Shown here piece by piece: positions 28,552 through 55,861 of a stretch of DNA of 64,000 nt; position 1 is the first letter of the stretch; every line of letters starts with the position of its first letter. The DNA is from Candidatus Omnitrophota bacterium. Lineage in GTDB: Bacteria > Omnitrophota > Gorgyraeia > Gygaellales > Profunditerraquicolaceae. The position numbers and the translations under genes are program-made. The notes below the pieces were generated by a model that ran no database searches, was not told where the DNA came from, and worked only from the letters and a program-made list of their open reading frames with translations. Where the stretch lies: assembly GCA_041662125.1 (NCBI GenBank), contig JBAZTA010000003.1, positions 135,992 through 199,991 of the forward strand, in the 5' to 3' direction.

Positions 28552-28563
28552 AAATCCTCCTTC

Positions 28564-29748: not shown

Positions 29749-29802
29749 TATTAAAACTTCTGATAAACCATCAGAGAACCGGCCTGATCCATGGAAGCGG
29801 TA

Positions 29803-30141
29803 TTACCATTGTCCGTGAGAGCCATGAGAGCCATGAGAGCCGTGAGAGCCGTGAGAACCGTGTGAGCCGTGAGAGCCATGTGAGCCGTGAGAGCCGTGAG
29901 AGCCGTGAGAGCCGTGAGAACCATGTGAAACGTGCCTTCCGGTGACAGGGTCATTATCCATATAGGAAGTCTGTGTATACGGTTGTGCCGCTGCCTGTTT
30001 TTGTATGAAGCTATTGACCATCCCCAATGTTAAGAGGATCCCCGCGCTTAAACGTAAAGCGTTTTTTCTGGTAATCTTAGCTTCTTCACTGTTTAAAAAC
30101 ATTTTTAAGTCTTTTTTAACTTTAGGGAAATCTTTTTTCAT
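29803..30141 (-). CDS. membrane-anchored His-Xaa-Ser tandem-repeat protein (HxsA-like)
   Basis: 112 aa. An N-terminal signal/TM segment 'LRLSAGILLTLGMVNSF' is followed by VSHG plus 12 perfect SHG repeats and ends ...GQW. It is encoded by a 9-bp DNA tandem repeat and is the only frame with a start codon and a signal peptide. The stop of the upstream gene overlaps its ATG (TGACATG). Confidence 0.6.
   Translation of the reverse strand: MKKDFPKVKKDLKMFLNSEEAKITRKNALRLSAGILLTLGMVNSFIQKQAAAQPYTQTSYMDNDPVTGRHVSHGSHGSHGSHGSHGSHGSHGSHGSHGSHGSHGSHGSHGQW
29815..29931. repeat. 9-bp tandem repeat (about 13 units of GTGAGAGCC and variants) encoding (Ser-His-Gly)n
   Basis: Direct reading: gtgagagcc / atgagagcc / gtgagaacc / gtgtgagcc units head-to-tail. 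All three plus-frames and three minus-frames give repetitive peptides. Only the minus frame (GSH) is part of a full ORF. Confidence 0.9.
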
Positions 30142-30142
30142 G

Positions 30143-30886
30143 TCAGTTAACGCCTCCTTTTATTTGCTCTTGCTCACCAGGATTGTTAGTGATTATTTCT
30201 CTTAATTTAGATTCATCGAATTCTTGGGTGAGAGGGTCATAACTGAACTGTTGATATATTTGTTTTTTTACATCTTCAAACAGGGTAATAATCTGTTCTT
30301 CGGAAAAGCCGGCTTGCTTTTTTTGTTCATAAAAGATCGGCCACGATCCAAGAGCTTGCTGCATTCTTTCTTTATACGCTTTGAGCCTTTCTTGCATCAA
30401 TTGTTCAGCGATTTCTTCTGGCTGTTGCGCCAGAGAGTTTTGCAAAGTTGAAGCGCTGGTTATTTCTTCGCATGTGGAATTGATCTTAGTTTTACAGGCG
30501 TACTTTCCTTTATTACAAATATAGCGCATAGTGATAAGCTCTTTTTTACAGTTGTCACAGGGTTCAAAGCTTGCTTTTTTATCAGCAGAGGTATAAATGA
30601 TCATTTTTAAAGAATTATCGTTTCTATCGAGCAGTTTCTTTTCTTCTTTCGACAACGTATCTACCCAGGTTGTCGAGAGGCGTTCATCGGCAATATAGCC
30701 TTCTCTTACTTCTGATAAAGGTAAACCGCAAACAGGGCATTTTGTGATCATCTTGTGGTCAATTTGGACGAGCGTGTCGGTAGGGCAGCCTTGAATTCTC
30801 GATTCAGCAGCACAGAAAGTGATATTTGTTAGGACAATACAGGCCAATACAAAACATTGATAGAGTCTAAACTGATTCTTTTGCAT
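30143..30886 (-). CDS. Cys-rich secreted protein with C-terminal Gln/Glu-rich helical region, hypothetical
   Basis: 247 aa. A signal peptide is followed by CxxC pairs 'CPTDT...CPVCG' and 'CDNCKK...CNKGKYAC...C'. It is translationally coupled to the repeat protein. Confidence 0.45.
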   Translation of the reverse strand: MQKNQFRLYQCFVLACIVLTNITFCAAESRIQGCPTDTLVQIDHKMITKCPVCGLPLSEVREGYIADERLSTTWVDTLSKEEKKLLDRNDNSLKMIIYTSADKKASFEPCDNCKKELITMRYICNKGKYACKTKINSTCEEITSASTLQNSLAQQPEEIAEQLMQERLKAYKERMQQALGSWPIFYEQKKQAGFSEEQIITLFEDVKKQIYQQFSYDPLTQEFDESKLREIITNNPGEQEQIKGGVN

Positions 30887-30900
30887 ACGTTGCCCTTTCT

Positions 30901-31113
30901 TTATTTTTCCGTCGCCGCTAAAGATAAAACATAATTTGAGAATTCATCTTTTACGAAAGGCCTGAGTTCTTTTTTTCTAATGTTATCAATCGTAACGATG
31001 ATCCGGCTTTTTTTGTTTTGCACCATAAAATCAGCAAGCCCCCGGTAATCTTTTATTGCTTTTTTGACAGAAGCCAGCGGATAAAAGTCTTCAGCAAAAG
31101 TGATTTTTAGCAT
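30901..31113 (-). CDS. small hypothetical protein (70 aa)
   Basis: No signal peptide. Its start overlaps the stop of the upstream gene by 7 nt. 'FSNYVLSL' weakly resembles the motif in the upstream neighbour. Confidence 0.35.
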   Translation of the reverse strand: MLKITFAEDFYPLASVKKAIKDYRGLADFMVQNKKSRIIVTIDNIRKKELRPFVKDEFSNYVLSLAATEK

Positions 31114-31556
31114 TTTTTTGGCTTTCGTTTTTTTGCCTGCGCAGTTTTATGTTTTTCTTCCCAGGGTATCGCTATCTTTAAAGGGTCTTCTTCCCAGTCC
31201 TGCTCAAGGCCTATTTCTTGCTGGCCTTCGAAAGTTGTTTTCTCAACAGGCGCAGAAGCCTGTGAGAAAAACAAAGCGGTTTTTATGATATGTTCCCGGA
31301 TATCTTTATTGCGCAGTGCGATATTGTAACGCAGCGTATTACTGATAAGCTCATTTTTAAAACTTTCTCGTAAATCGGCAAGTGATACATGGGAATCCTT
31401 GGGGGTCAAGCAAACATTGATATCATTGCTTTGTCCGGGAAGTTTTTCCAAGAAAGCATACGTGTCGTTTAAAAACTGACAACAGGTAGTAATAACCGCT
31501 TCTTTAGAAAAGATATCGCTTGATAATTTAAGTTCAATCGTTTTTGTTTTTTTCAT
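31107..31556 (-). CDS. hypothetical protein with 'LNDTYAFLE' motif (possible HxsD-like accessory protein)
   Basis: 149 aa, cytoplasmic. 'CCQFLNDTYAFLEKL' near the N-terminus resembles the motif I recall as the HxsD family signature (LLNDYxLRE). The C-terminus is Lys-rich. Confidence 0.4.
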   Translation of the reverse strand: MKKTKTIELKLSSDIFSKEAVITTCCQFLNDTYAFLEKLPGQSNDINVCLTPKDSHVSLADLRESFKNELISNTLRYNIALRNKDIREHIIKTALFFSQASAPVEKTTFEGQQEIGLEQDWEEDPLKIAIPWEEKHKTAQAKKRKPKKC

Positions 31557-31574
31557 AAATGCTCCATTCTTTTT

Positions 31575-32123
31575 TTAATGGCACAGCATATATCCGGATG
31601 TATCTAATAAACCTGGATTAGCGATAACAAAAGGACTAACGGGAGAACCACCTAAGGTGAACACATTGATCACATGCATGAACGCAGGGTCACACCAAGT
31701 AACCCTTGCTCCCGGGTCAATTCCTGAAAGCGGAACCACCGGGAACGGGTCATATCTAACAAATCTTGGTTGAATAAACAAAGGGAACCATAAACCTGAA
31801 CTTGTGTAATAGAATAAAGCGTGATAATTAATGTCATAGTATATTTGGCCATCTGCCGGATTTGTGGGAGGGGTTGGCCTTGGATCTAGTGATAGTACCC
31901 CATCATCAACCAAATATGCAGCACCGCTATTGGGATCGCGAGAGCGTCCTACGGTCATTCTATGTGCTTTTACCGTGTCATATAAACCGGTGAGGCTCGG
32001 ATAATACGTTGTTATTACTATTTCTTCTTGGGCTGATGCTTGAGTAATGCAAAGGATTATTAAACTTATAATAGGAATAATTGTTAAGAATATGTTTTCT
32101 TTGTTTAAGTATTTGATGAGCAT
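31575..32123 (-). CDS. secreted protein, paralog 1 of a three-member local family (unknown function)
   Basis: 182 aa. Signal peptide ...'ITQASA'. The mature N-terminus 'QEEIVITTYYPS...YD' and the motifs 'DGVLSLDPR', 'GQIYYD', 'FYY', 'WFP' and two Cys are shared with the next two genes. Confidence 0.6.
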   Translation of the reverse strand: MLIKYLNKENIFLTIIPIISLIILCITQASAQEEIVITTYYPSLTGLYDTVKAHRMTVGRSRDPNSGAAYLVDDGVLSLDPRPTPPTNPADGQIYYDINYHALFYYTSSGLWFPLFIQPRFVRYDPFPVVPLSGIDPGARVTWCDPAFMHVINVFTLGGSPVSPFVIANPGLLDTSGYMLCH

Positions 32124-32140
32124 AGGTTAAAAGTATTTTG

Positions 32141-32608
32141 TTAAATACAAATCAAAAATCCGTTTGGCGGAGGAGCGCTAAAATCTGCCCTGTTTTTATT
32201 CAAATCAAGTACATTCACTGCCGTTGCGTTTTGCAAGCCCAATGGGTTTATTGGTGCATTACAAGAAAACGTTCCTGGGCCATATGGTATCTCACGGGCA
32301 CTACCCAAAGCCGGCAGCCATATGGTTGCATTAAAAAAATAAAATGATCTGTCTATTCCATAGTAAAAGATATCTCCCTGTCTGGGGGCAAGTCCGGGAA
32401 AAGTTGCGCGAGGCCCAAAACTAAGAACACCATCTCTGGTTAGTTCAGGAGTACTATTTGTGCCAATGCCTACTTTATTTGCGATAAGCCTGTCATACGC
32501 TGCGTTCGCAGAAGGAAAATATGTTGTGATGTAAATATCTTCAGCAAAGCCGTACTGCGCAATTCCTACTATACAAAATAATAAGAGTAATGATAGTCTT
32601 TTTGTCAT
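32141..32608 (-). CDS. secreted protein, paralog 2
   Basis: 155 aa. Signal peptide ...'AQYGFA'. Mature 'EDIYITTYFPS...YD...DGVLSFGPR...GDIFYYG...FYFF...WLP...PPPNGFLICI'. Confidence 0.6.
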   Translation of the reverse strand: MTKRLSLLLLFCIVGIAQYGFAEDIYITTYFPSANAAYDRLIANKVGIGTNSTPELTRDGVLSFGPRATFPGLAPRQGDIFYYGIDRSFYFFNATIWLPALGSAREIPYGPGTFSCNAPINPLGLQNATAVNVLDLNKNRADFSAPPPNGFLICI

Positions 32609-32622
32609 TTTCTCATGAGCCT

Positions 32623-33072
32623 CTAATCACACAGTAACCATCCTCCGCCCGGTGGCGGAGCCAACCAATTTACTAACCGTCCGGTTTGATCCATGACATT
32701 AATTAAAGTCATACCATATGGGCAACCAGACCATAAGTCAGGGGTATACACTTTCATAGCAACTCCGGGATTTGCATACCACCGTGTCCCATCATTATAA
32801 AAAAACATTAACAACGCGCTATTATAATAAATACTGCCTGGAATATTCCCCGGAGGAGCTGCAACCCTGGGAGAAAAAGCAATTGTTGCATCATCTGAAT
32901 TATTATGCATAGCACTTTCGCCGACATTAAGTTTGTGTACTTTAATGGAGTCGTAACTCCCAAAAGGCGAAGGATGGTAAGTGCTGATAACAATATCTTT
33001 ATCAGTAGCAAAGCTGATCGAATAATAACATAATAAAACAGCTAAACTTATGTAAATTTTACGCATATGCAT
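32623..33072 (-). CDS. secreted protein, paralog 3 (start trimmed to internal Met preceding the signal peptide)
   Basis: The ORF-track frame runs to 33258 but overlaps the upstream rSAM gene. The probable start is 'MHMRKIYISLAVLLCYYSISFA' (ATG 33070-33072 or 33064-33066). Mature 'TDKDIVISTYHPS...YD...PGSIYYN...FFY...W...APPPGGGWLLCD'. Confidence 0.55.
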   Translation of the reverse strand: MHMRKIYISLAVLLCYYSISFATDKDIVISTYHPSPFGSYDSIKVHKLNVGESAMHNNSDDATIAFSPRVAAPPGNIPGSIYYNSALLMFFYNDGTRWYANPGVAMKVYTPDLWSGCPYGMTLINVMDQTGRLVNWLAPPPGGGWLLCD

Positions 33073-33103
33073 AGTAATTAATATATCAAATAACCGATTC
33101 TTG

Positions 33104-34057
33104 TCAATTATTTTTATGAGGCACTGTAATAGCTTTAAACTCTTTAACACCAAACTGTTTCGTATAATATTTCCAGGCCCCTTCACAATATAAATTATAC
33201 ACGCAAATTTTACAACAAGCAAATTTAATTTTTGAGTCTCTTCTCCTTCTTTTTTCAATAAAAAATGATTCTCTTCCCCGAGTGCCTATCGCTGTTTTCC
33301 TTTGTCCATCCTTGAATTCACCAACTATACCTTGAAAATTCGGGATCCCGGCTAATATGCAAAAGGGGATATCTCCCACAGTGAGATTAAGTTTCATCTT
33401 TTTCGCAAGGCCAACTGCTGCAGTAAGATGCTTTTTTATTGCAGTATAGCGAGGTACTAATAAATCAAAATTACGCCGTCCTCTTCCTTCCGGATTAATA
33501 AAGTTTAGCCGAAAATCCCTTAATTGGAACTTTTGGGAGAAAAAGCGGATCATTTTCGAAAGATCACGGTAATTTAATTTATTAATAACTATATTGAGCA
33601 ATATATTATCTTTAATGATCCCTTTTTTTCTGAGTATTGCTAAATAACGCAGCCCTTGTGTTTTTTCAGAAAAGCCTCCTTTTACCGCGGTCAGAAAATC
33701 TTCGGTTGCGGCTTTATGGCTGTGAATAGAAATATAAAAGCGTGACGCTCCGGCCTGTATGATTTTTTTGAGGAATACCGCGTCAGAGTAACGCCTGCCG
33801 TTGCTGACCAAATAAACACCCTGGAATCCGAGCTTTCTGGCAAAGAGAATCGATTCTACGAGATGGGGGTATAGTGTCGGCTCACCTCCCAGAAAACCGA
33901 TCATACGGTAGCCCTGTTTGTAAAAATCCAGGAGCTCTTTTTTTACTTCTGTGACAGGGATGAATTTCTGCTCTTCGCGCGGGACGTCACTCATGCAAAA
34001 TTTGCAGCGGTTATTACAGAGAAACCCCAGGTTAATTTCAGCTTTTTTATCTTCCAT
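33104..34057 (-). CDS. radical SAM enzyme, roughly 300-aa 'type B' (N-terminal CxxxCxxC, C-terminal CxxC...C cluster)
   Basis: 317 aa. 'CNNRCKFC', 'LGGEPTL', and C-terminal 'CCKICVYNLYCEG' are present. Confidence 0.8.
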   Translation of the reverse strand: MEDKKAEINLGFLCNNRCKFCMSDVPREEQKFIPVTEVKKELLDFYKQGYRMIGFLGGEPTLYPHLVESILFARKLGFQGVYLVSNGRRYSDAVFLKKIIQAGASRFYISIHSHKAATEDFLTAVKGGFSEKTQGLRYLAILRKKGIIKDNILLNIVINKLNYRDLSKMIRFFSQKFQLRDFRLNFINPEGRGRRNFDLLVPRYTAIKKHLTAAVGLAKKMKLNLTVGDIPFCILAGIPNFQGIVGEFKDGQRKTAIGTRGRESFFIEKRRRRDSKIKFACCKICVYNLYCEGAWKYYTKQFGVKEFKAITVPHKNN

Positions 34058-34994
34058 GAAGTATTTTGGCCGTGATCGCTTCTTTACTCACAAATACAGG
34101 ATGAAGCTCTTTTGAGGAATAAAATTTGTCCATTTGATATAACCCGGGGCATATGCTGTCAAGGAAACAGGTTTTGCAGCAGTCTGTTTTGTCATATCCC
34201 CATTTTTTCTTCCAATCGTTTTCATAATGAAAACCGCGGTTGTCCAGGAAAAATGTTACGCGGTTCTCTTTTTTTACCAGTTTTCTGGTCTCATTGAGGA
34301 CGTGTTCAAACTCGGGAAGCGCGCAGAGCGGCAAGCGCTCTACTCTGAAAGTTTTATGGTGTTTTTCCAGGAATACCAGCGCACGGTGCAATGATAATTC
34401 AATTTCTGACAAGCGGGGTATCGTATCCGGATTTTCCTTGGCCCTGTCCATGTAGGGGTCAAGGTTATTCCAAACAAAATGGCGCACAAAGGAGAAGTTT
34501 TTTACGATCCAGGATACATTTTCATACAAATGGCCGGCATTATAGTGGTTGATCACGATATTCATATCAACTCTGATCTTTGGAAGTTTCTCTAAATTCC
34601 TTAAAGCTTTAATAATATTGTCCAGGGCGTCTTTGTTTTGAGTTAAAAACGATTGGATCTCTTTTTTATACGAATAAAAAGAAAGATGCAACTGCTGTAA
34701 TCCCGCTTTTTTCAACTCCAGCAGGTAAGAATAATCGGCTAACTTCTGCCCATTTGTGATGATACGGCAGGGCATGTTTTTTACCCGGCAATAGCTGATT
34801 AAATCACCTAAGAACGGAGAAAGTGTTGGTTCTCCCCCGGTAAATATGATCCCATCATAGGATTTCTTAATATAGAGATCGATTAATTTCTTGCCTTGTT
34901 CAAGGGTGAGTGTTTTTTTTGTCGGAGGATTCGAACAAAAACGGCATTGCTGGTTACATTCCCTGGTGAGTTGGATATACGCTAATGACGCCAC
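34047..34994 (-). CDS. radical SAM enzyme, type B paralog
   Basis: 315 aa. 'CNQQCRFC', 'FTGGEPTL', and C-terminal 'CCKTCFLDSICPG' are present. Confidence 0.8.
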   Translation of the reverse strand: MASLAYIQLTRECNQQCRFCSNPPTKKTLTLEQGKKLIDLYIKKSYDGIIFTGGEPTLSPFLGDLISYCRVKNMPCRIITNGQKLADYSYLLELKKAGLQQLHLSFYSYKKEIQSFLTQNKDALDNIIKALRNLEKLPKIRVDMNIVINHYNAGHLYENVSWIVKNFSFVRHFVWNNLDPYMDRAKENPDTIPRLSEIELSLHRALVFLEKHHKTFRVERLPLCALPEFEHVLNETRKLVKKENRVTFFLDNRGFHYENDWKKKWGYDKTDCCKTCFLDSICPGLYQMDKFYSSKELHPVFVSKEAITAKILHGR

Positions 34995-35037
34995 AGTGTT
35001 GACCTCGCTTTGTACATGTTTTGATCTGACAGTTGGC

Positions 35038-36231
35038 TCATATGTTTTTTAAGATCTTAAAGCCTTTTTCCCGTATCAGCCTGATAGGGGCTCCGTTGCA
35101 GTTTTTATGCGCTTTACAGAGATCGCACCTCAAGCTTTTCAAGAAAAACCTTTCATTGATAAAAAAATCCAAAAACGCGTTAATATCAATTGTGCCCTGC
35201 GTAAGAAATCGTTTGAACCTGCGCCGGTGCGTTTGAATGCAAACACCTGTTTCTTTTGACACTATTTGTTTATCTTTCTTTAGTTTGACCAGGTCGTTAC
35301 AAAAATCTTCGATAAAACAATAGCGGCATTGAGCTCCAAAGCACGGCATAAGTTCGCCTCGCTTGATAAACCGAGAAAACAGCGACATTCTTCCCCTGAT
35401 CTCATCTTTTAATTTTTCCGGGTGCTGGATCAATTCTTCAAATCCTTCCAAGAACCGGGCAGGGAACCGATTGGTCCAGATATAAATATCAGGGAACTCA
35501 TATTGCAGCTGAAAGGCTTTTTTGAGATACGGTGCGGCTGCAGGTATTGTATACAGGACTTTCTCCTTATTCTTCCAGGCAGAGCCAAACGGCGTCACTT
35601 GGAGCAGATCAAATTCGGTTATATTGCGAGAAATAAAAAATCTCATAATATCCTCCAGATGCCGATAATTGATCTTATTGATAACGATATCAATATTTAT
35701 AATCAGGCGGTTGGACTCCAATGCGTTTGTCAGTCCCGCCATTGCCTGCGCAAATGAACCTGTAACGCCTGATTGCTTCTCATAAAGCGTTTTCGTATGG
35801 CCGTGCATCGAAAAAGTTATTTCACTGACTCCCGCAGCGACTGCTTTATTGAGAAAAGACCGGTAGTAAAACATGCGGCCGTTTGTCACGACTTGGACCT
35901 GCGCATAGCCTAAGGTTTTTGCAAGTTCCACAATACGCAGGAAATGGGGATGCAGGGTAGGTTCTCCTCCTGAAAGGATAAGTTTAACAGAACCCTCAGA
36001 GATTCCCTGTTCCATTTCCTTTTTTAAGGCAAGAATGCTTCGAGAAGTTCCATTGTGATGAACGCTATCGAGGCAGAAAACGCAGTTGTTATTACAAAAA
36101 TTCGTCAATCGCAGCCAGAATTTTTTTTTCTGCGCGGCCTCTTTACGTTGCGTTATTCGAGTTTTTAACTGGTTCAAGCTCTTTATCTCCATAGAGTGAG
36201 TAATAGTGCTCAAATATCCCGCCGCAAACAC
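35038..36231 (-). CDS. radical SAM enzyme with extended Cys-rich C-terminus
   Basis: 397 aa. 'CNNNCVFC', 'SGGEPTL', and C-terminal clusters 'CFGAQCRYC...C' and 'CDLCKAHKNC' are present. An alternative start at ATG 36190-36192 would reduce the 89-nt overlap with the upstream gene. Confidence 0.75.
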   Translation of the reverse strand: MFAAGYLSTITHSMEIKSLNQLKTRITQRKEAAQKKKFWLRLTNFCNNNCVFCLDSVHHNGTSRSILALKKEMEQGISEGSVKLILSGGEPTLHPHFLRIVELAKTLGYAQVQVVTNGRMFYYRSFLNKAVAAGVSEITFSMHGHTKTLYEKQSGVTGSFAQAMAGLTNALESNRLIINIDIVINKINYRHLEDIMRFFISRNITEFDLLQVTPFGSAWKNKEKVLYTIPAAAPYLKKAFQLQYEFPDIYIWTNRFPARFLEGFEELIQHPEKLKDEIRGRMSLFSRFIKRGELMPCFGAQCRYCFIEDFCNDLVKLKKDKQIVSKETGVCIQTHRRRFKRFLTQGTIDINAFLDFFINERFFLKSLRCDLCKAHKNCNGAPIRLIREKGFKILKNI

Positions 36232-37066
36232 TCTTGTACAAACAACAACGGCATACGGCGGTCTTTATTCTTTTTCTTGTTGGACGCATGCATCTTTCTT
36301 CTTTTACATAGTTTTTTTTACCCGCGGCAAGTTCAAGCGTAAGGCGTTCATCCCAATAGAAATCGTTTGAATAACAGGCGAAATCACCTAAAATACAAGC
36401 CGGCATGCCAAAAAACCTGATAATACTTTTATGCGCATTAGCCTTTTTAATCAAAACCGGTATTTTTGTTTTGATTTCAGAGAGCCTGACGGCTAATGCT
36501 TGGTAATCGCGTAACCCTCTTCCTTCCGGAGCAAGATTCGAAAAAAGCATGTGTTTGATCTTTTTCTTCAAGAGAAATGTTTCTATTTTTTCGAGGGAAT
36601 TAAAATTAAGCCTGCTGATTACTGTGTTGCTAAAGATCCTGATCGGATAATCAGACAACCATGCTAATGCCCGGGATAGATTGCTAAAACTCCCCTGGGT
36701 TTTTACGATCATATTATGCTCTTTCGCCGAATGCCCATGGATGGAAAAACATACTTCATCAAGGTATGCGGCTACCTGTGAGCAAAACTTTTTTTCTGAA
36801 AATCTACCCCCATTAGTGCCCACGCGGATCGAATAACCCATTTTCCTGGTTTCCTGTGCCAGCTCCGTAAAAAACGGGACAAGGGTCGCTTCTCCTCCGG
36901 TAAAATGCACGCTCGTAAAGCCTTTCTTTTTCTTTTCTTTTAACAACGTAAGAATCGGATCAAGGGCAAGCGGTTGTCTGTGAAACCGGCCGATAGCATC
37001 GGAAGAACTGCAAAACACACATTTCTGTGAGCAGGTATATGAGATATGAAAGTCAATATGTTCCAT
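36143..37066 (-). CDS. radical SAM enzyme, type B paralog
   Basis: 307 aa. 'CSQKCVFC', 'FTGGEATL', and C-terminal 'CRCCLYKSVCGG' are present. Confidence 0.8.
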   Translation of the reverse strand: MEHIDFHISYTCSQKCVFCSSSDAIGRFHRQPLALDPILTLLKEKKKKGFTSVHFTGGEATLVPFFTELAQETRKMGYSIRVGTNGGRFSEKKFCSQVAAYLDEVCFSIHGHSAKEHNMIVKTQGSFSNLSRALAWLSDYPIRIFSNTVISRLNFNSLEKIETFLLKKKIKHMLFSNLAPEGRGLRDYQALAVRLSEIKTKIPVLIKKANAHKSIIRFFGMPACILGDFACYSNDFYWDERLTLELAAGKKNYVKEERCMRPTRKRIKTAVCRCCLYKSVCGGIFEHYYSLYGDKELEPVKNSNNAT

Positions 37067-37093
37067 TTAAAGATTTTAGCACAGTAATACCAT

Positions 37094-39025: not shown

Positions 39026-39100
39026 AGTATTTCCTTAGCCTTCCGACAGGGCATATGCTTTTATCTTTTGTTCAGGCTTATAGCTATTCTAAAACAATGA

Positions 39101-39979
39101 TTAATCTGTGAAATAACGTTTTTGCAGCCCCTTGCAGGAGTGCGCAAAACGGCAATCGACGCAAAATGGCCTTTTACTGAATAGCCTGTTGAATTTAGAC
39201 ATATAGGCTGATTTCTTTGTTTTTGCTTGGATCAAAGTATCTACTTCATGATTTTCTCTTATACTGGCCGGGTGAAAACCTTTAAGGTCGTTTTGCCTGC
39301 GGTTGGCTGATTCAGGATACAGTAAGCAGGGCGCAAAACCGCGAAAGACTATGCGAGCCTGGCGCAGGCCAAGAGTGCGTATACGGGTCAAATAATCTTT
39401 GATTTCCGGCAAACTCAAATGGCTCGCCTTGCCCTTTGGTATGATTTCTTCGGCGATTATAAAATCCCTGATTGATGCTTTATAGAGTGAAGTAATTGTT
39501 TTTTCCAAATCGCGATAATTAAAAGAGCTCAATACAGTGTTGATCCGTATCGAAATATCGAACTTTTTACGCAATGCGATAAGGTTGCGGATACCCGCTT
39601 TTGTTTCCCGGCAGCTTCCTGTTCTTTGAGTTATTCGATCATGTGTTATATCCCGTACGCTATACAAGGAAACCGCGAATTCATTGACACCAGCGATCAA
39701 TAAATCGCGGGTGAAAGCGGGGTTTTTCAATAATCGCGCGTTCGTGATGATTCCTATTGCACGAAAACCCCTTATTTTGCAGTGTTTAACTATTCGTATC
39801 AGCCCGCGCAACATCGTTACTTCCCCGCCGGTAAGGGTGATCGTCTGGCTTGTTTCTCGCGTCTTATTGATACTATGGTAAATTTGCTTAAGGGAGTTGC
39901 AACTGATAATGGCATGGAACTCATGCCGGGGGCAAAACAAACAATCATTATTGCACTTCAGGCTTAAGGTTATATCCAT
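39101..39979 (-). CDS. radical SAM enzyme, type B paralog
   Basis: 292 aa. 'CNNDCLFC', 'TGGEVT', and C-terminal 'CVDCRFAHSCKG' are present. Confidence 0.8.
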   Translation of the reverse strand: MDITLSLKCNNDCLFCPRHEFHAIISCNSLKQIYHSINKTRETSQTITLTGGEVTMLRGLIRIVKHCKIRGFRAIGIITNARLLKNPAFTRDLLIAGVNEFAVSLYSVRDITHDRITQRTGSCRETKAGIRNLIALRKKFDISIRINTVLSSFNYRDLEKTITSLYKASIRDFIIAEEIIPKGKASHLSLPEIKDYLTRIRTLGLRQARIVFRGFAPCLLYPESANRRQNDLKGFHPASIRENHEVDTLIQAKTKKSAYMSKFNRLFSKRPFCVDCRFAHSCKGLQKRYFTD

Positions 39980-43948: not shown

Positions 43949-43971
43949 TGTATAATCAAATCGTTTTAAAA

Positions 43972-44886
43972 CTACTCAATTACTGGTTTAAATTCAACCC
44001 AACCGTTTCGTTTTATATATGGTTCCCAGACGCCATCACAGATGGTAGCGTAAATACATTTTTCACAAGAAACCCCTTTTATTCTTTTGGGGTTCCTGCG
44101 TTCAACCCTCACATTTTTATTTTTGCTTAATAAAATCGATTCGAAGCTACCCAAGAGGTTCTCAAATCCTCTTAATACGCATGCCGGTAACCCAACGATA
44201 CCTATGCCGACCCTGCGATGTGATCTGGCATCAAGTTTTAACGCAGTAACGGAATTCTTAAAAGCTTCGGCCAAAAACGTGTAGTTAGGGCTCAAACGGT
44301 TTAAAAAAAACAATCCATTGCCAGCGGGTATAACGCAATTTACACCGATACTTTCTACAGATTTAAAACCGAGCGCTAAACGATAAAAATCAATCAGGTT
44401 AGAAGCATTTATCGCATTAAGCGTTATATTAATCCGCCAAATAAAATTGTTTGTTTGTCTTAAAATATCAAGATTCCCGCAGGCTTTCGTTGTTTGTTCA
44501 AAACTCCCCTTGGTACGGGTTAAGGCATCATGAATTTTACTGGTACTCCCATGGAGAGAGACTATTATTTCAGTAATCCCGCTTGATAACAAGGCTTTTG
44601 CATAGTGTATATAGCTCAGGCGCCTCGCGTTGGTGATCAAGCGGATGTTTGAATAACCTGCTGCCCTCGCAGTTTTTATATACTCTGTGAGAGAGTCATT
44701 GACGGTTGGTTCAGGCCCTGTGAAAATAATGTTTTTTGTCCTGCGGACGCCTTTTTTTAAAAGCTGATGAAGCTGACGGGGTGATTTCGCAGTACTGCTA
44801 TGATTAACCTTATCGATGCAAAACAAGCAATTGTTATTACAGCGGTCATTAATAATACACTGGAGCGTAACTTCATTTTGCAGCAT
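43972..44886 (-). CDS. radical SAM enzyme, type B paralog
   Basis: 304 aa. 'CNNNCLFC', 'TGPEPTV', and C-terminal 'CEKCIYATICDG' are present. Confidence 0.8.
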   Translation of the reverse strand: MLQNEVTLQCIINDRCNNNCLFCIDKVNHSSTAKSPRQLHQLLKKGVRRTKNIIFTGPEPTVNDSLTEYIKTARAAGYSNIRLITNARRLSYIHYAKALLSSGITEIIVSLHGSTSKIHDALTRTKGSFEQTTKACGNLDILRQTNNFIWRINITLNAINASNLIDFYRLALGFKSVESIGVNCVIPAGNGLFFLNRLSPNYTFLAEAFKNSVTALKLDARSHRRVGIGIVGLPACVLRGFENLLGSFESILLSKNKNVRVERRNPKRIKGVSCEKCIYATICDGVWEPYIKRNGWVEFKPVIE

Positions 44887-46660
44887 GGGTGCCTTTCACC
44901 GGGACAAATTCATTCCAACCGAAAAAAGCGGGATATTCAATCCACGTTCCTTCACAGCGGGCATAATAGATGCAGTTTTTGCAGTTTTCTGCTTTAGTTT
45001 TTGCTAAGCCAGGACGAAGCTTGTCAAAATCAATTATTTCGTCAGGAAACTCGTAGATTTTAGTAGACGGGATACAGCGTTCCGCGATAAACCTGTTATA
45101 AGAACCCAGCATGCAAGAGGGTATTGCTTCAGTCATTACCGTAATACCGGCGTTTATGCCGATGGTTAGGGCTTCTTTGATATAGGGGATCACTAAGCTC
45201 ATGCGCGGGACTATAGAATTGAAATTTTCAGCGGCAGAGCCGAGCGCATGGACGAAAGCTAACTGGAACTGTTTTACCCCCAGATATACCAAAAGCCGCG
45301 CGATTTCAGGAAGCTGCCGATAATTCGATTGAGTAATAACCGTGTTTGAATAAACCGGTACGTTAAGCTTGGTCAAATTTGTAATTGCTTTGACGGTTTG
45401 AGCAAAACTTCCCGGGGTAGATGTAAGATAATCATGCATCGCAGGAATATGCCCGTGAATGGCGACCCCAAATTCATTGGCGCCTGAATCGATTGTTTTA
45501 ACACAAAAATCTTTATACGCGAACATGCGGGCGTTCGTCTGGATCTGTATCCTGCGGTAACCCAATTTCTTTGCAAAGCTCACAAGCGTAAAAAAATCCT
45601 CACGGATCGTAGGCTCGCCTCCGGTGAAAACAACTCCGTTAGAAGTTGCCCGCGCTTCTCGCAGTATTTTCTGAACATCGTGCGTTGACTTATCCTGCAG
45701 TATTTCTTTTTTCTTGCCTTGAACGCAGAATTTACAATTGTTATTGCACGAATATCCGATTTTAATATCCGCCCGAACGATCTTGATCTTGAGGCTATCC
45801 ACAAAATTACACAATAACCGGTCAACAATGTAGGTATCGCTTATGATATCTTTGGAAAAGGCCTTTTTGATTATTATCGGCATTTGGCGCGCATCAAAGC
45901 GCAATGCGCTATTCGATATAGAATTGACGTGCCCAAGAAATAACTTATTTTTTTCGTTAGCCATGTTCTTAAAAAGGACGCAATTGCTTGCGTAGAAGTT
46001 TCCAAAGGGATCACAGGTCAGCCCGGTATTAAAAAGCGGGACATCTCCTTTTACCTCTGAATTCTTAAAATAGATTTCTGGTTTGTCGCATGCAAACAGA
46101 GAGATCTTTTTGAATTGGCGTTCTAAGTTTTTTATGTGGAGCCCCTTCCAGTCCACATAGTAATTCGGTAAAATGTTAAAACGCCTGAAACCTGACGCAT
46201 AGAGTTTTTTGAAATCAGAAAAAGCATGACAGGCGCCTTTTGGCGTGATATTAACGGTAATGGTTAAGAAAGGATACTTGGGAAGCGTAAGCGTGGCTTT
46301 GATTTTCTTGATATGGTAGGAATCAACCACGATTTCTATCTCGTGTTTCAAGCAAAATTTCACTATTGTTTCATCAATGAGAGTGCCATTGGTAGCCAGG
46401 ACAAAATTGATTCTTTTATGGAGCCGGCGCGCAATATGATCCGCGTAGATGACTATATCTTTGAGCAGCGAAACCTCAAGAAGCGGTTCTCCTCCAAAAA
46501 ACTTTATCGTCTTCTGTTCTCCGTGAGTCTGTAAAAAGAACAAAACCGCTTTCCGGGCGATCTCCTTTTTTATTGAAATATTTGTTTTCTCGATGCCGCA
46601 AAAAGAACAGCCTTCGTTGCAATTTTGAGTTAAAACAAGAGTCAGGAAAGTATTGTCCAC
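44873..46660 (-). CDS. double radical SAM fusion protein (type A N-domain plus type B C-domain)
   Basis: 595 aa. N-domain 'CNEGCSFC'/'FGGEPLL'. C-domain 'CNNNCKFC'/'TGGEPTI' with terminal 'CKNCIYYARCEG'. Confidence 0.8.
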   Translation of the reverse strand: MDNTFLTLVLTQNCNEGCSFCGIEKTNISIKKEIARKAVLFFLQTHGEQKTIKFFGGEPLLEVSLLKDIVIYADHIARRLHKRINFVLATNGTLIDETIVKFCLKHEIEIVVDSYHIKKIKATLTLPKYPFLTITVNITPKGACHAFSDFKKLYASGFRRFNILPNYYVDWKGLHIKNLERQFKKISLFACDKPEIYFKNSEVKGDVPLFNTGLTCDPFGNFYASNCVLFKNMANEKNKLFLGHVNSISNSALRFDARQMPIIIKKAFSKDIISDTYIVDRLLCNFVDSLKIKIVRADIKIGYSCNNNCKFCVQGKKKEILQDKSTHDVQKILREARATSNGVVFTGGEPTIREDFFTLVSFAKKLGYRRIQIQTNARMFAYKDFCVKTIDSGANEFGVAIHGHIPAMHDYLTSTPGSFAQTVKAITNLTKLNVPVYSNTVITQSNYRQLPEIARLLVYLGVKQFQLAFVHALGSAAENFNSIVPRMSLVIPYIKEALTIGINAGITVMTEAIPSCMLGSYNRFIAERCIPSTKIYEFPDEIIDFDKLRPGLAKTKAENCKNCIYYARCEGTWIEYPAFFGWNEFVPVKGTHAAK

Positions 46661-46743
46661 GTATGTATAACGGATTTATAAGGTTACGTACGTTTGGCAC
46701 CCGTGTAGCTAAATGCAGGGATTAACACAATGAATGTAAGCAG

Positions 46744-48237
46744 TTATTGTGAACCGGCTGGTAATGTGTAATTTGCCCATTTATAAAACAATTTCTTTAC
46801 CTTTGTATTCCTTAATTTATCAAACAAAAAGTCAAGTATCCCTTTATTGATTATGCAGCGGGGATTTGAACTTATATGAGAAAAGATATTGCCTTCATAC
46901 GACCAGTTAAATATAGGGCAAACTCCGCAGTAGGGTTTATACGCGCATAAATCACAGCTGGTGTTATCCAGGCAGGAAGCCATACTTAAGACTTTTACCG
47001 TAGAATGGTTCACGATTTCTTTGTATTTATTTTTTGATACATTCCCTATGCAGAATATTTCATCGCCGACCATTCGCCCTTCATCGCAGGTATAGACCTT
47101 TCCGTCATAGTTATAGAGCAGTTGGCCTATCCCGGCACCGCAGGGAGAACGCAACTCAAGAAAATTCGGGTCATAGTCGGTAATGATCTTGGCAAGGAAT
47201 ATCTTAGCGGTGTTCTCATGAAAATGGCTTTTGGGGTGTTTTAACGCGTAGGATATGACACGGTTAAGTGCCCGCGTATAGAATTTCAAGTATTCTTGCG
47301 GGGTATAGCCGATATCTTCCCACATGTTTTTCGCGATACCCAGGGGAGTCATCGGGCGCAAAAAAATAAATTCAAGGCCCCTTGTAATATATTCATTGAC
47401 GATTGCTTCAGGGCATTTCAAAGAATCTTTGCTTACGGTAAGAAGAGCCCCGGGCTTGAATTTATTATCAAGTTTTGATTTGTAAACTTTTTGGGCTTTT
47501 TTGAGCCAGCGAACCGCTTGACGATGATTATTCCCTTTGCTCCAGATACGGTTCTTATTATGGATATGTTCCGGGCCATCAAGAGAAGTACAAACAGTAA
47601 CTGAGTTTGCTACGAGAAATTTAAGTTTTGCCTCATCCATTAAAGAAAAGTTAGAAACAAGCCGTAGCTCAAGATTCTTCTTTTCCACCTTGTTCTTGGT
47701 TTTACTGTATTCAATAATGAATTTAACGGTTTGCCAATTAAGCAGCGGTTCGCCTCCCTGAAACTCAAGAGCAATTGTTTTCGAAGGAGACAAAAAGATC
47801 ATATCGACGATTTTTTTGGCGGTGGCGATGTCCAGGTCAAAGCCTTTTTCTGATTCTGCTCGGGACGAGCTTTGGCAATAAATACATTTTTGATTACAGC
47901 GCAGCGTGACAACGATGATATGCAGAGACGGGCCCTGCCATAAGAATAAATTCTTTTTCTGGTATTTTAACACAATATCCGCAGTATTGATCTTATCCCG
48001 GATCAATCCTTGTGTCTTTAATATTTCAAAGATCGGGCCATGCTGAGGCAACGTTCCTTCCAGAAAACTCGTAAAATTCTTTTCGGAGAGTATCACGTAT
48101 TCTCCGACATCATTGGTGAGCAGATAATCGGATGCGCCCTGTTTTTTAAATCTAAAAAATCCGACTTTCTCCCAATCAACTTTTTTTATTATAGATTGAT
48201 TCATGTTCGCTCCTGTATCCAATGCTCCTTTACTCAA
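46744..48237 (-). CDS. radical SAM/SPASM-domain enzyme (anSME/HxsB-like maturase) with an N-terminal extension of about 95 aa
   Basis: 497 aa. 'LRCNQKCIYC', 'QGGEPLL', and the C-terminal SPASM pattern 'CGAG...C' and 'CDLCAYKPYCGVC' are present. Confidence 0.75.
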   Translation of the reverse strand: MSKGALDTGANMNQSIIKKVDWEKVGFFRFKKQGASDYLLTNDVGEYVILSEKNFTSFLEGTLPQHGPIFEILKTQGLIRDKINTADIVLKYQKKNLFLWQGPSLHIIVVTLRCNQKCIYCQSSSRAESEKGFDLDIATAKKIVDMIFLSPSKTIALEFQGGEPLLNWQTVKFIIEYSKTKNKVEKKNLELRLVSNFSLMDEAKLKFLVANSVTVCTSLDGPEHIHNKNRIWSKGNNHRQAVRWLKKAQKVYKSKLDNKFKPGALLTVSKDSLKCPEAIVNEYITRGLEFIFLRPMTPLGIAKNMWEDIGYTPQEYLKFYTRALNRVISYALKHPKSHFHENTAKIFLAKIITDYDPNFLELRSPCGAGIGQLLYNYDGKVYTCDEGRMVGDEIFCIGNVSKNKYKEIVNHSTVKVLSMASCLDNTSCDLCAYKPYCGVCPIFNWSYEGNIFSHISSNPRCIINKGILDFLFDKLRNTKVKKLFYKWANYTLPAGSQ

Positions 48238-48341
48238 CGAAGTATATAACTATGAACCGAATGAATGTTTTATTATATCACATTTACACTTTTTTCATGA
48301 TAAATTCTGCTTCCTTAACCATTCACGGAAAAATCTTTTGC

Positions 48342-49604
48342 TTATTGCGCGGTCGTTATGTTGTTGTTAATTGACGTTATTTTTAAGAAAACAAGTTTAT
48401 TCTTCAAGTTATCATTTGACCGCGTCGTTATCTTAATGTAGTTATCGCTATAACCTTCCCAGGAGAAGGATGTATCACTAGTTTTCGATTCTATAAGTAC
48501 GGGGACTTGTTTATTGAGGAATCGCCTACGAAACGCTAAAGACATTTGGCTCTCTATTTTTTTGAGTGCCGCAACACGGGCATGAATAGTACGTATATGA
48601 ATTTCCGGTTTAAAATGGAATGCTTTGGTGTGTTCTCGGGGGCTATACGGAAATATATGCACCTTCAGAGGCTTTATCGCGCGCACGAGCTTTATCGTAT
48701 TATCAAAATGAGCTTGGGTTTCACCGGGGAACCCGACTAATACATCGGTAGTGATCGCGATCCCGGGAACAACCCTCTTTATCTCTTTTACCAGGTCAAT
48801 ATACTGTTTTCGATTATATTTTCGGTTCATTTTCATGAGGATTTCGTCATCCCCGCTTTGCATCGGGATATGCAAATGCCGGCACAATTTTCCAGACGAT
48901 GAAAGTTTATGTATTAATTCTGGCGTGACGTCGGATGCTTCAAGAGAACTCAGCCGTATACGTAACAGTCCTTTTATTGTTTCAAGTTCTTCGATGATTC
49001 CTACGAGGTTTTGCCGGCCAGACAAGTCTTTACCATATGCTCCCAGGCAGATACCGGTAAGGACAATTTCTTTAAAACCATGAGCAACTAAGCTTTGAGC
49101 TTCAGCGTAAATGTCGCCTTTTGCCTTACTTTTTGATTTTCCCCTGACCAGGGGTACTTTACAGTATGAACAACCATTGTTACACCCATCCTGGATCTTT
49201 AGAAAAGCCCTGGTATGGCCTTTAAAAGAGGTAATTGCTTCTTTTTGTGCTAATCCTGGTTTCTTTTTCCCCGGCAAATATTTTTGAATATTGGCCTTAT
49301 CTTGGTTACGCACAACCAGTATTGACCGGGATATATCCTTGATCTTATTCTTATCTAACTGCGCTAAACATCCGGTTACGATTATTTTTGTTTGAGGGTC
49401 CTCTTTTTTTAACCGCGTGATCAATTTGAAAGCTTCTGAGTCGGCTTTATGGGTAACCGTGCAGGTATTGATCAAACAAATATGAGCACGTTTTAAATGG
49501 CCGACTTCTCTATAACCATTAAGCGTAAGTTTTTCTCTCATATCCTGGGTGTCGTATTGGTTAGCTTTACATCCAAATGAGTAAAATCGTACGGTTTTTT
49601 CCAT
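48342..49604 (-). CDS. MiaB/RimO/MtaB-family radical SAM methylthiotransferase (start trimmed to internal Met)
   Basis: The probable start is 'MEKTVRFYSFGCKANQYD' (ATG 49602-49604). The MTTase N-domain Cys are FGC, NTC and TGC. Radical-SAM 'CNNGCSYC' and a C-terminal TRAM-like region are present. The 37 aa upstream in the ORF-track frame have no counterpart in the family. Confidence 0.75.
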   Translation of the reverse strand: MEKTVRFYSFGCKANQYDTQDMREKLTLNGYREVGHLKRAHICLINTCTVTHKADSEAFKLITRLKKEDPQTKIIVTGCLAQLDKNKIKDISRSILVVRNQDKANIQKYLPGKKKPGLAQKEAITSFKGHTRAFLKIQDGCNNGCSYCKVPLVRGKSKSKAKGDIYAEAQSLVAHGFKEIVLTGICLGAYGKDLSGRQNLVGIIEELETIKGLLRIRLSSLEASDVTPELIHKLSSSGKLCRHLHIPMQSGDDEILMKMNRKYNRKQYIDLVKEIKRVVPGIAITTDVLVGFPGETQAHFDNTIKLVRAIKPLKVHIFPYSPREHTKAFHFKPEIHIRTIHARVAALKKIESQMSLAFRRRFLNKQVPVLIESKTSDTSFSWEGYSDNYIKITTRSNDNLKNKLVFLKITSINNNITTAQ

Positions 49605-49618
49605 GTGAGTAATATTTG

Positions 49619-50359
49619 TTAATCTGATCCGTAATAAAATCTGATAAAACCGGCTATAGCTATGGCTGCGGTATCCACACGCAGAACCAGATTCCCAAGC
49701 GAAACAGGGATACATCCCGCTTTTTTGGCCTGATTAGTTTCTTGTTCCGTAAAATCACCTTCAGGCCCTATCAGTACCAGAATTTGGCGTGGGTGTTTAA
49801 AATCTGAGAAAATTTCAATGGCTTTCTTCCGATTTCCTTCTAAGGTTGGGATCAATTTCAGGTCAAATTCACAAGAAGTATCTAAGAGTTCACCAAAAGA
49901 GGTTATAGCGCTAATTTCCGGAATTGTGCTGCGTTGGCTCTGTTGACAGGCATTCTGAGCTATTCTACGCCAGCGTTTTAGCCTGAGGGCCTCTTTCTGT
50001 TTGTTTATTTTTACAATGACCCTCTCTGATAAGAGCGGAATGATCCGGTCGACGCCTAACTGTGTTAATGTATTGATTATATCATCCATTCTTGCATTCT
50101 TAGGTATTGCACAGGCAATCGTAAGATGCGTATTTACCGCGGCACTGGCGTTTTTGACCGAATGTATCTTTAAGGTGATTTGATGTGGTAGAATTGTTTC
50201 CGTTTCACAGGTATACTCAAGCCCGGTATTATTACAAACAATAAGCATAGCATCCGTTTTTAACCGCAGGACGTCTTTGAGGTAATGGATCAATACTGGG
50301 TCAGTGATCCGTATGTAACCTGACGCAATATATTCTTCAGGGCAAAAAATTCTTTTCAT
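49619..50359 (-). CDS. rsmE: 16S rRNA (uracil1498-N3)-methyltransferase
   Basis: 246 aa with RsmE/DUF558 architecture: PUA-like N-domain and SPOUT C-domain 'LVLIGPEGDFT'. Confidence 0.75.
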   Translation of the reverse strand: MKRIFCPEEYIASGYIRITDPVLIHYLKDVLRLKTDAMLIVCNNTGLEYTCETETILPHQITLKIHSVKNASAAVNTHLTIACAIPKNARMDDIINTLTQLGVDRIIPLLSERVIVKINKQKEALRLKRWRRIAQNACQQSQRSTIPEISAITSFGELLDTSCEFDLKLIPTLEGNRKKAIEIFSDFKHPRQILVLIGPEGDFTEQETNQAKKAGCIPVSLGNLVLRVDTAAIAIAGFIRFYYGSD

Positions 50360-54863: not shown

Positions 54864-54947
54864 AAATGAATTATTCACCATCAATACGCAAGGGCATCTT
54901 ATAAAAAAGATGCCCTTGCGTACCAAAACTTGGCCAAAAGATCTGGT

Positions 54948-55301: not shown

Positions 55302-55337
55302 GTAAGAACCTTAATGTACTCCGGTAATTAAGGTACG

Positions 55338-55845: not shown

Positions 55846-55861
55846 AGAATAATGTACTCAC

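Follow-up and report, generated by a model that had tools for sequence, protein, structure and literature searches.

What would a bacterium make with one tightly packed run of genes encoding fourteen radical S-adenosylmethionine (rSAM) domains, and on which substrate do these enzymes act? The question is raised by the minus strand of a 64 kb stretch of contig JBAZTA010000003.1 from a Candidatus Omnitrophota bacterium (the window, meaning the whole stretch analysed), where an earlier note had proposed a maturation system like the canonical His-Xaa-Ser (HXS) system, the HxsD-HxsB-HxsC-HxsA set of Pseudomonadota reportedly described by Haft and Basu in 2011. The core of that proposal has been borne out: the cluster encodes a bona fide HxsB (TIGR03978, 475.8 bits against a cut-off of 370, aligned over positions 3-466 of 466), a bona fide repeat precursor HxsA4 (NF038313, 87.2 bits against 55) and a bona fide HxsD-like small protein (NF038315, 56.9 bits against 41). 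Judging from these family assignments and from gene neighbourhoods, the cluster is probably an HxsA4-type His-Xaa-Ser maturation system, that is, a peptide- or protein-modification pathway built around the single precursor HxsA4. The Hxs interpretation is supported, and the system is a much enlarged, uncharacterised variant of Hxs. It extends from ca. 28261 to 48237 and comprises 11 rSAM open reading frames (ORFs) with 14 domains and nine non-rSAM genes. All ORFs listed in the earlier note were found to be present, and two genes that it had missed could be added, those of the 70-residue HxsD-like protein (30901-31113) and of a Lys-rich secreted protein (28261-28551). In 5' to 3' order on the minus strand, the cluster contains:

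46744-48237, minus: HxsB, SPASM radical-SAM maturase
33104-46660, minus: ten further rSAM ORFs
31575-33072, minus: three small secreted paralogs (149, 155 and 182 residues)
31107-31556, minus: HxsD-type protein, 149 residues
30901-31113, minus: HxsD-like protein, 70 residues
30143-30886, minus: secreted Cys-rich protein, 247 residues, 11 Cys
29803-30141, minus: HxsA4 repeat precursor, 112 residues
28564-29748, minus: FlaK-like GxGD (peptidase A24B-type) polytopic membrane protease
28261-28551, minus: small secreted protein, 96 residues, with a Lys/Glu-rich tail

The precursor, its partners and the protease

HxsA4 begins with a Lys-rich leader (KVKKDLKMFLNSEEAKITRK), which is followed by a segment of moderate hydrophobicity, a linker, a Ser-His-Gly tract and a terminal Gln-Trp. 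The tract had been counted as 12 units and contains 13, so that it forms a tandem His-Xaa-Ser array of 13 H-G-S units; it derives from a 9-nucleotide tandem repeat, of which Tandem Repeats Finder reports 11.9 copies at 29813-29919. A 67-residue ORF at 29751-29954 on the minus strand (...LTALTALTA...) was discarded as a gene, being a by-product of the same repeat read in another frame. A hidden Markov model (HMM) of the leader was used together with the window proteins to score related loci (labelled L###), which were collected as homologs of the 405-residue type A rSAM enzyme described below, with one genome per species, giving 77 loci with a range of ±10 kb each. The leader HMM found exactly one ORF in the window, which supports a single precursor, and 27 ORFs over the related loci. 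Complete leader-bearing ORFs nearly always end in SHGSHGQW, and their leaders follow the consensus K-K-D-I/L-K-x-F-L-x-S-E-E-G/A-K-I-x-K-K.

The family counts 336 homologs in a large protein collection, some of which are named 'His-Xaa-Ser repeat protein HxsA4' by NCBI. Over the wider family (including P0121-P0240) the proteins end in GQW, GSW, RGGWC or CCCGTTGY and their cores differ, and the existence of HxsA4 sub-families with different final chemistry is suggested. A conserved leader followed by a variable core is usual in precursors of modified peptides. One HxsA4 relative (L089, 7445-7792) was observed to carry a non-repeat Cys/His-rich core. In an Elusimicrobia locus (L008, 6592-9003) the leader and 27 repeats are in frame with a B12-rSAM protein in an 803-residue ORF; this is probably a frameshift or an assembly error within the repeat, the related loci L022 and L057 having a separate HxsA4 that ends in GQW, or else it may be a real fusion. 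A likeness of the leader to Flp/Tad prepilins, noticed by eye, was rejected after Pfam Flp_Fap gave no match to four HxsA4-type N-termini at E up to 10.

Two HxsD-type proteins are encoded close to the precursor. The one of 149 residues scores 41 bits with TIGR03976 (E 1.8e-10; cut-off 50), has a precomputed match to the Pfam HxsD family (PF27806) and carries at its C-terminus a conserved motif, DPLxIAIPWEEK, as well as a basic tail; its homologs adjoin HxsB in L007, L008, L012, L019, L041 and L087. The 70-residue protein, the one placed above the cut-off of the HxsD-like small-protein model, has homologs L087_70 and L012_75.

The gene following HxsA4 encodes a membrane protease in which D20 and G86-D87-A88-K89 (AGDAK) are invariant over 22 aligned homologs. 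It shows both the two catalytic aspartates with GxGD and the A24 family fold, with extra transmembrane helices and a small C-terminal domain. The previous description of an A24 peptidase-like protein stands as far as these invariant residues are concerned, whereas the PF01478 score of 17.5-22 bits falls below the gathering score of 26.5 and the gene lies beyond the array as then delimited; a precomputed PF01478 match exists in 14 of 31 homologs. Homologs are found within rSAM arrays in L044 and L041, and all four that were looked up adjoin Hxs genes: in L087 and in the ENA (European Nucleotide Archive) assembly ERZ1426844 the order HxsD, HxsD-like, Cys-rich, HxsA4, protease is the same as in the window, in L088 the homolog lies behind an rSAM array, and in L089 it is oriented divergently to HxsD and to an HxsB-like gene. 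By this linkage the FlaK-like protease is taken to be a dedicated member of the system. Since canonical HxsA undergoes a non-canonical N-terminal processing (PMC13128918), the GxGD protease is a candidate for leader removal here.

The remaining non-rSAM proteins (the Cys-rich protein, the three secreted paralogs and the 96-residue protein) bear N-terminal signal-like segments, and none of them matched a family in our HMM scans. The hydrophobic segment of the Cys-rich protein spans residues 8-30, and a homolog is recognised in L087 (L087_211, E 2.9e-13). Signal-bearing proteins with 10-15 Cys adjoin HxsA4 in L007, L012, L019 and L041, and a similar 15-Cys protein lies upstream of HxsD in L008, in all cases with undetectable sequence similarity. 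As to the three paralogs, the earlier description of signal-peptide proteins holds, whereas their suggested role as substrates is unlikely, because they have no leader motif and form a tiny, lineage-specific family. A fold search gave no identification for them, and they share only a short motif with the fibre-like repeats of DUF5907, DUF2793 and DUF7360. Their most conserved part is the first ca. 30 residues behind the signal peptide (ITITTYYPSPxGSY...), which is disordered in the AlphaFold monomer, and a later G-x-Y-Y...W motif is found again as a repeat in long proteins of fibre-like type (DUF5907, DUF2793). The paralogs might oligomerise or exchange strands.

The radical SAM enzymes

A total of 15 CxxxCxxC motifs, instead of the approximately 16 rSAM domains estimated earlier, was counted across 12 rSAM ORFs. 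All 12 exist, but one of them, mtaB, is a housekeeping gene (see below), which leaves 14 domains in 11 ORFs. The division into two paralog types was confirmed by all-against-all BLASTP, which rendered type A (five domains including HxsB, 25-38% pairwise identity), type B (eight domains, 21-32%) and two singletons, namely MtaB and the putative B12-binding rSAM domain in the N-terminal half of a 925-residue protein. The ten ORFs behind HxsB are:

44873-46660, minus: fusion of type A (N-terminal half) and type B (C-terminal half), 595 residues; CxxxCxxC at residues 14 and 305
43972-44886, minus: type B, 304 residues; HxsC4 163 bits against a cut-off of 500
41171-43948, minus: fusion of a putative B12-binding rSAM and type A (C-terminal half), 925 residues; motifs at residues 289 and 619
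39970-41187, minus: type A, 405 residues, N-terminal extension of ca. 95 residues; no SPASM cysteine block
39101-39979, minus: type B, 292 residues; HxsC4 80.5 and HxsC 72.7 bits, under cut-off
37094-39025, minus: fusion of type A (N-terminal half) and type B (C-terminal half), 643 residues; motifs at residues 34 and 376
36143-37066, minus: type B, 307 residues; HxsC4 103.6 bits
35038-36231, minus: type B-like with an extra C-terminal Cys-rich tail, called as 384 residues from 36192
34047-34994, minus: type B, 315 residues; HxsC 93.6 bits
33104-34057, minus: type B, 317 residues; HxsC4 138.7 bits, aligned over 14-334 of 335

HxsB, whose start is more likely at 48222 (492 residues), has reciprocal best hits with 47-87% identity in L002, L004, L007 and L008. 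For the type A domains, the similarity to PapB, HxsB, CcpM and SCIFF-type peptide maturases is confined to the N-terminal rSAM core, and an alignment with HxsB shows that the four other members have no SPASM cysteine block. Their nearest solved structures are CteB and then anSME; for the 405-residue enzyme, which has 1829 homologs, the nearest of them in Omnitrophota and Elusimicrobia, the closest structure is CteB 5WGG (E 4e-37).

For all eight type B domains the top family is HxsC4 (NF038332) or HxsC (TIGR03977), with 54-180 bits against 500 for the former and 67-136 against 267.9 bits for the latter. When ten B-type enzymes of other loci were compared with HxsC4, none reached the cut-off either, the maximum being 197 of 500 bits. 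The alignment shows a conserved P-x-C-x-L and a C-terminal CxxCx5CxG, in agreement with the C-terminal CxxC..C described before, and these four additional cysteines are as expected for a second cluster, a second Fe-S motif being described in canonical HxsC (PMC13128918). The highest scores are those of the 595-residue fusion (HxsC4 179.7 bits, HxsC 136 bits, both under cut-off), the B half of which is 50% identical to L008 17081-17986 from Elusimicrobia. Other orthologs were found for 43972-44886 (L012 6262-7182, 44%; L044 4439-5365, 45%) and for 35038-36231 (L041 6987-8090, 40% identical; HxsC4 99 bits, HxsC 94.5 bits), and reciprocal best hits for 39101-39979 (L007, L019), 36143-37066 (L008 15211-16143, 36% identity) and 34047-34994 (L008 16143-17084, 45% identity).

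In the 925-residue fusion, the B12-binding domain (PF02310) is borderline (32.8 against 32.1 bits) and is followed by the motif CFNNCFFC at residue 289; Pfam Radical_SAM covers residues 615-765 and leaves the N-terminal half unscored, and BchE reaches 43.5 bits against 481. This fusion is kept in L002, L004, L007, L012 and L019, its halves being adjacent genes in L008, and the 643-residue A+B fusion is kept in L008 (622 residues), L012, L019 and L044. Further arrangements in other loci include A-A-A-B, A-A and B-A-B. Fusions of this kind recur, which speaks for a joint action of A and B domains.

No window rSAM protein scored above the cut-off of the equivalog HMMs for tetrapyrrole-modifying enzymes (AhbD, NirJ): the best AhbD score was 103.9 bits against 500 and the NirJ models gave ca. 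82 against 500-650, always under the HxsC-type scores. Membership of the paralogs in a known cofactor-biosynthesis family, which the earlier note had named as a check on its proposal, was likewise not found above any cut-off, the best matches being HxsC4/HxsC, PapB, HxsB and CteB 5WGG. Signal-like N-terminal segments were absent from every rSAM ORF, which suggests that the enzymes are cytoplasmic.

Ten of the 14 domains have reciprocal best hits in the Elusimicrobia locus L008, with 28-50% identity and scoring above any paralog in the same genome, and most of the remaining ones have such partners in L007, L012, L019, L041 or L044. The roughly sixfold amplification of the rSAM component that had been proposed, taken as a recent event, must consequently be abandoned, as the paralogs are only 21-38% identical and closer orthologs exist in another phylum. 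According to these comparisons, the rSAM set is a collection of ancient, differentiated orthogroups, each of them separately conserved. The idea of one rSAM domain per repeat was also discarded, L007 having 5 repeats and 18 motifs versus 27 repeats and 11 motifs in L008.

Distribution, boundaries and genomic context

A protein with the leader and an (S-H-x)n tract of 5 to 37 repeats was found in ca. 22 distinct loci, so that the association of array and repeat protein holds outside this genome and across phyla; the hosts are labelled Omnitrophota, Elusimicrobiota and, for some metagenome-assembled genomes (MAGs), Planctomycetia and Methanosarcinales. HxsA4 is present wherever HxsB lies within ±10 kb, except for L004, where it is found further on in the same contig (L087). 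Where the repeat protein is missing from the range, the array is mostly truncated by the end of the contig, and other such arrays, for instance those of L014 and L035, take up the whole range. A precursor of this kind is also missing from the range of remoter loci (ca. 30% identity; Myxococcota and "Rickettsiales" MAGs), which may represent other systems. In other loci the genes usually follow the order HxsD-(HxsD-like)-HxsB-Cys-rich-HxsA4-rSAMs, from which the window differs in that HxsB comes first and the HxsD/HxsD-like/Cys-rich/HxsA4 block last. Some Omnitrophota MAGs have two separate multi-rSAM arrays on different contigs (L010 and L055; L015 and L044).

Nitrogenase-like (Nfl) genes are present in a subset of the loci. 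NflH/NflD-like genes lie beside HxsB, HxsD, HxsA4 and rSAM orthologs in L008, L029 and L062, and beside HxsA4 and rSAMs in L031 and L033, with HxsB and HxsD out of range. In ERZ1426844, NflD, NflK and NflH are co-directional and directly upstream of four rSAM genes, behind which follows a secreted-paralog/HxsD/HxsD-like/Cys-rich/HxsA4/protease module as in the window. The loci include genomes of Meheust et al. (GWA2_69_24, our L017, and GWF2_62_30, our L040). No Nfl genes occur within the window or in the other Omnitrophota loci scored, and therefore HxsA4, not Nfl, is the constant partner of the rSAM suite.

The minus-strand run is tightly packed and is bordered as follows:

49619-50359, minus: RsmE, the upstream neighbour
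48342-49715, minus: MtaB tRNA methylthiotransferase (TIGR01579, 428.8 bits against a cut-off of 357)
28261-48237, minus: the system
after the 96-residue gene, 5' to 3' on the minus strand: GatC, GatA and GatB

Spacing between system genes ranges from -50 to +83 nucleotides, and up to +119 if the gap between mtaB and HxsB is counted, instead of the 0-30 nucleotides or overlap stated previously; the 96-residue gene starts 12 nucleotides past the protease gene and is separated from gatC by 153. The latter small gene is probably the last one of the cluster: a homolog occupies the same place after the protease in L087 (E 2.5e-13), and beyond it synteny ends, with GatCAB here and pilus genes in L087. 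At the other end, MtaB was rejected as a member of the array because it is a TIGR01579 equivalog located 14 nucleotides behind RsmE and missing from other arrays, no MtaB equivalog being adjacent to the array in L008, L012, L019 or L041. In another Omnitrophota genome a MiaB-like gene (UPF0004 and rSAM, 378 residues, 28% identical to the window MtaB) lies inside the rSAM array (L007, 14896-16032), and a methylthiotransferase-type enzyme may, on this indication, be a true component in some lineages.

An operon structure is plausible from the gene arrangement. Co-directionality is weak evidence on its own, because nearly all coding in the window is on the minus strand, and a scan of the window gave promoter and terminator counts no higher than in shuffled controls. 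A single strong sigma-70-like site (33080-33107, minus strand; 11 of 12 matches, extended TG) sits in the 31-nucleotide gap ahead of the first secreted paralog (ATG at 33072), from which a nearly leaderless transcript would result; the site may serve as an internal promoter or may have arisen by chance.

The flanking genes (GatCAB, TsaD, RsmE, MtaB, AmmeMemoRadiSam) are of housekeeping type, the position of the cluster between housekeeping genes is stable in three Omnitrophota lineages, and upstream synteny is kept in relatives down to 53% identity. The AmmeMemoRadiSam-type set just upstream (51054-53685) combines a fusion of Memo with AMMECR1 (51054-52583) and, as an independent gene, a radical SAM (52570-53685). 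The latter, the 13th rSAM ORF nearby, was matched by none of the system queries in tblastn and is therefore not related to the Hxs array. Type IV pilus/type II secretion system (T2SS) genes lie at 53912-58835 (N_methyl pilin, T2SS F, T2SS E), and in L087 pilins, PilM, PilO and a secretin (11946-21152) are found directly behind the cluster. In view of the FlaK-like protease and of the pilin-like arrangement of HxsA4, in which a charged leader precedes a hydrophobic segment, the cluster might conceivably be linked to a filament or to a secretion machine.

Proposed pathway, rival explanations and comparison with known systems

According to the pathway that we propose, the N-terminal leader of HxsA4 would be held in the cytoplasm by HxsD, the HxsD-like protein and HxsB, and pairs of A and B domains, often fused, would act like canonical HxsB and HxsC. 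Together with the B12 enzyme, these pairs would add various radical modifications in series (cross-links, C-additions or methylations) to the His and Ser residues of (SHG)13, and the invariant C-terminal Gln-Trp would perhaps be modified as well. The hydrophobic segment would then engage the membrane, where the candidate FlaK-like protease would cut off the leader, and the modified His-rich tail would finish extracytoplasmic, beside the co-encoded Cys-rich, secreted-paralog and Lys-rich proteins. The product might serve as an effector in the envelope, as canonical HxsA does, or form a structure with metal or redox activity.

Several observations weigh against this reading. The earlier statement that every Hxs role has a candidate holds for HxsB, HxsA4 and the HxsD-type proteins but not in full for HxsC, given that the HxsC-like domains all lie under the HxsC and HxsC4 cut-offs and cannot be counted as equivalogs of either; the 149-residue HxsD is also under the TIGR03976 cut-off. 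The repeat number (5 to 37) does not follow the rSAM number across loci. The hydrophobic segment of HxsA4 is only moderately hydrophobic, and the resemblance of its leader to that of Flp prepilins, made out by eye, has no Pfam support. Moreover, HxsA4 has neither the peptidoglycan-binding domain of canonical HxsA nor basic repeats, so that the canonical DNA-trapping mechanism is not simply transferable.

A different outcome, of which we are doubtful, is a route to a peptide-derived cofactor or metallophore with HxsA4 as a sacrificial precursor, in which the rSAM enzymes would turn His/Ser/Gly units or the SHGSHGQW end into a heteroaromatic or metal-binding molecule, a peptidase would free the product, and NflHD/K of group VI would reduce it further in some lineages. 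Pathways of the pyrroloquinoline quinone (PQQ) or mycofactocin type combine a SPASM rSAM enzyme with a small partner, a peptidase and a short precursor whose C-terminus is invariant, and the present layout parallels PqqA/PqqE/PqqD and MftA/MftC/MftB. The NflH/NflD-like genes that adjoin Hxs and rSAM genes in L008, L029, L062, L031, L033 and ERZ1426844 speak for this route as well, as do the metal-binding character typical of His-rich repeats and the stable position in three Omnitrophota lineages, which is more in keeping with a physiological role than with an accessory one. However, the signal-like hydrophobic segment and the secreted neighbours suggest export of the peptide itself, tracts of as many as 37 units would be wasteful if the C-terminus alone were used, the C-terminal ends differ in the wider family (four kinds were listed above), and the Nfl genes are absent from the window and the other Omnitrophota loci. 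A bolder reading, which we hold to be unlikely, would have the conserved 14-domain line convert the (Ser-His-Gly)n polymer into a His-derived material or cofactor of a new kind, exported and heavily cross-linked or heteroaromatic, with the group VI reductases of Elusimicrobia acting on that product and not on a tetrapyrrole. It is, on the other hand, very improbable that the rSAM array acts on a tetrapyrrole-type cofactor and that the Hxs genes are no more than neighbours. This would agree with the proposal of tetrapyrrole reduction that Meheust et al. made for group VI Nfl from the neighbouring rSAM and B12 genes (bioRxiv 10.1101/765248), and type B domains do have secondary matches to AhbD and NirJ of up to ca. 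104 bits, but these are always outscored by HxsC and HxsC4, type A domains resemble peptide maturases, HxsB, HxsD and HxsA4 are found inside arrays across phyla with Nfl only in a subset, and the ten flanking genes scanned include no tetrapyrrole genes.

It can also be the case, compatibly with the maturation of HxsA4, that the matured protein blocks phage DNA entry from the periplasm as in canonical HXS, a role that seems quite unlikely to us. HxsABCD is a broad anti-phage system with a periplasmic, matured HxS-repeat effector (PMC13128918), HxsB is an equivalog here and the product is predicted to be extracytoplasmic. Nevertheless, the cluster has housekeeping flanks instead of a defence island, its upstream synteny is kept to relatives of 53% identity, PADLOC reports only a generic viperin similarity of the rSAM core, the peptidoglycan-binding domain is missing and basic residues are few in the repeats, and 14 rSAM domains would be costly when two suffice for the barrier in E. 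coli. Among all these possibilities, the HxsA4-type maturation pathway is the one we favour.

The interest of such a pathway is that the precursor logic of the two-enzyme HXS would support one about seven times larger, and the separate conservation of each enzyme across phyla implies that a single short repeat peptide passes through many different radical reactions in succession. The anti-phage role of canonical HXS, with its +8 Da change on SHRSS, was demonstrated as late as 2026; the cluster adds a dedicated candidate protease for the N-terminal processing step. It would also assign to an Hxs-type peptide system the "extensive radical SAM suite" that accompanies the group VI nitrogenase-like genes of Elusimicrobia, with HxsA4 as a candidate substrate of the reductase. 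In Omnitrophota, which are ultra-small and largely uncultured, the stable chromosomal position suggests an important envelope or cofactor function.

The earlier note knew of no characterised system with this architecture. The system is indeed uncharacterised, and a literature search found no publication on a multi-rSAM architecture of this kind and no paper tying the Elusimicrobia rSAM suite to Hxs; yet NCBIfam models for HxsA4, HxsC4 and HxsD-like proteins exist and the Elusimicrobia suite was described in 2020. Among the NCBIfam 'type 4' models, HxsA4 (NF038313) and HxsD-like (NF038315) are above cut-off here, and that of HxsC4 (NF038332) is unreached by the domains here or by the ten scanned elsewhere. 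The 2020 work reported a large collection of radical SAM proteins beside group VI nitrogenase-like paralogs of groundwater Elusimicrobia (Meheust et al. 2020, bioRxiv 10.1101/765248), genes whose function a 2026 review still lists as unknown (PMC13474568). The gene families are orthologous, with reciprocal best hits to the window domains at 35-50% identity, but HxsB, HxsD and HxsA4 were unrecognised there and tetrapyrrole chemistry was proposed, whereas the window contains no Nfl.

Peptide-cofactor pathways and those of ribosomally synthesised and post-translationally modified peptides (PqqE/PqqD, MftC/MftB, CteB/PapB) share the logic of leader, partner protein and peptidase, and CteB/SCIFF and the PapB ranthipeptide maturases, together with anSME, are nearest in sequence to the type A cores. 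The system differs from them in its SPASM-less type A enzymes, in having several-fold more rSAM domains and in its long tandem-repeat substrate. With respect to FlaK (A24B, PDB 3S0X), the protease has ca. 200 extra residues, made up of more transmembrane helices and a small alpha/beta C-terminal domain, stays below the Pfam gathering threshold, and is linked to Hxs genes and not to archaellin or pilin genes.

The closest counterpart is canonical HXS (Li et al., Nat Commun 2026; PMC13128918), a four-gene system that blocks phage DNA entry, with 99.7% of the systems in Pseudomonadota and the order HxsD-B-C-A in more than 99% of them. In it, HxsB, HxsC and HxsD are necessary for the N-terminal processing, for the +8 Da change within SHRSS and for export, and HxsC, which has the second Fe-S motif, binds HxsD (PMC13128918). 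Both systems have an HxsB equivalog, an HxsD-family partner, HxsC-like rSAM enzymes with a second Cys motif and a tandem His-Xaa-Ser precursor with an N-terminal export or processing signal, and in both the enzymes would be cytoplasmic and the product extracytoplasmic. Instead of the four-gene HxsD-B-C-A organisation with two rSAM domains, however, the cluster has ca. 20 genes and 14 such domains, including SPASM-less HxsB-like enzymes, a putative B12-rSAM enzyme and A+B and B12+A fusions, and it adds a second HxsD-type protein, a dedicated FlaK-like protease and co-encoded Cys-rich and secreted proteins. Its precursor of 112 residues has no peptidoglycan-binding domain, carries 13 SHG units (up to 37 elsewhere) and ends in GQW, and its hosts are Omnitrophota, Elusimicrobiota and others, where the genes lie in a housekeeping context, versus the Pseudomonadota of canonical HXS.

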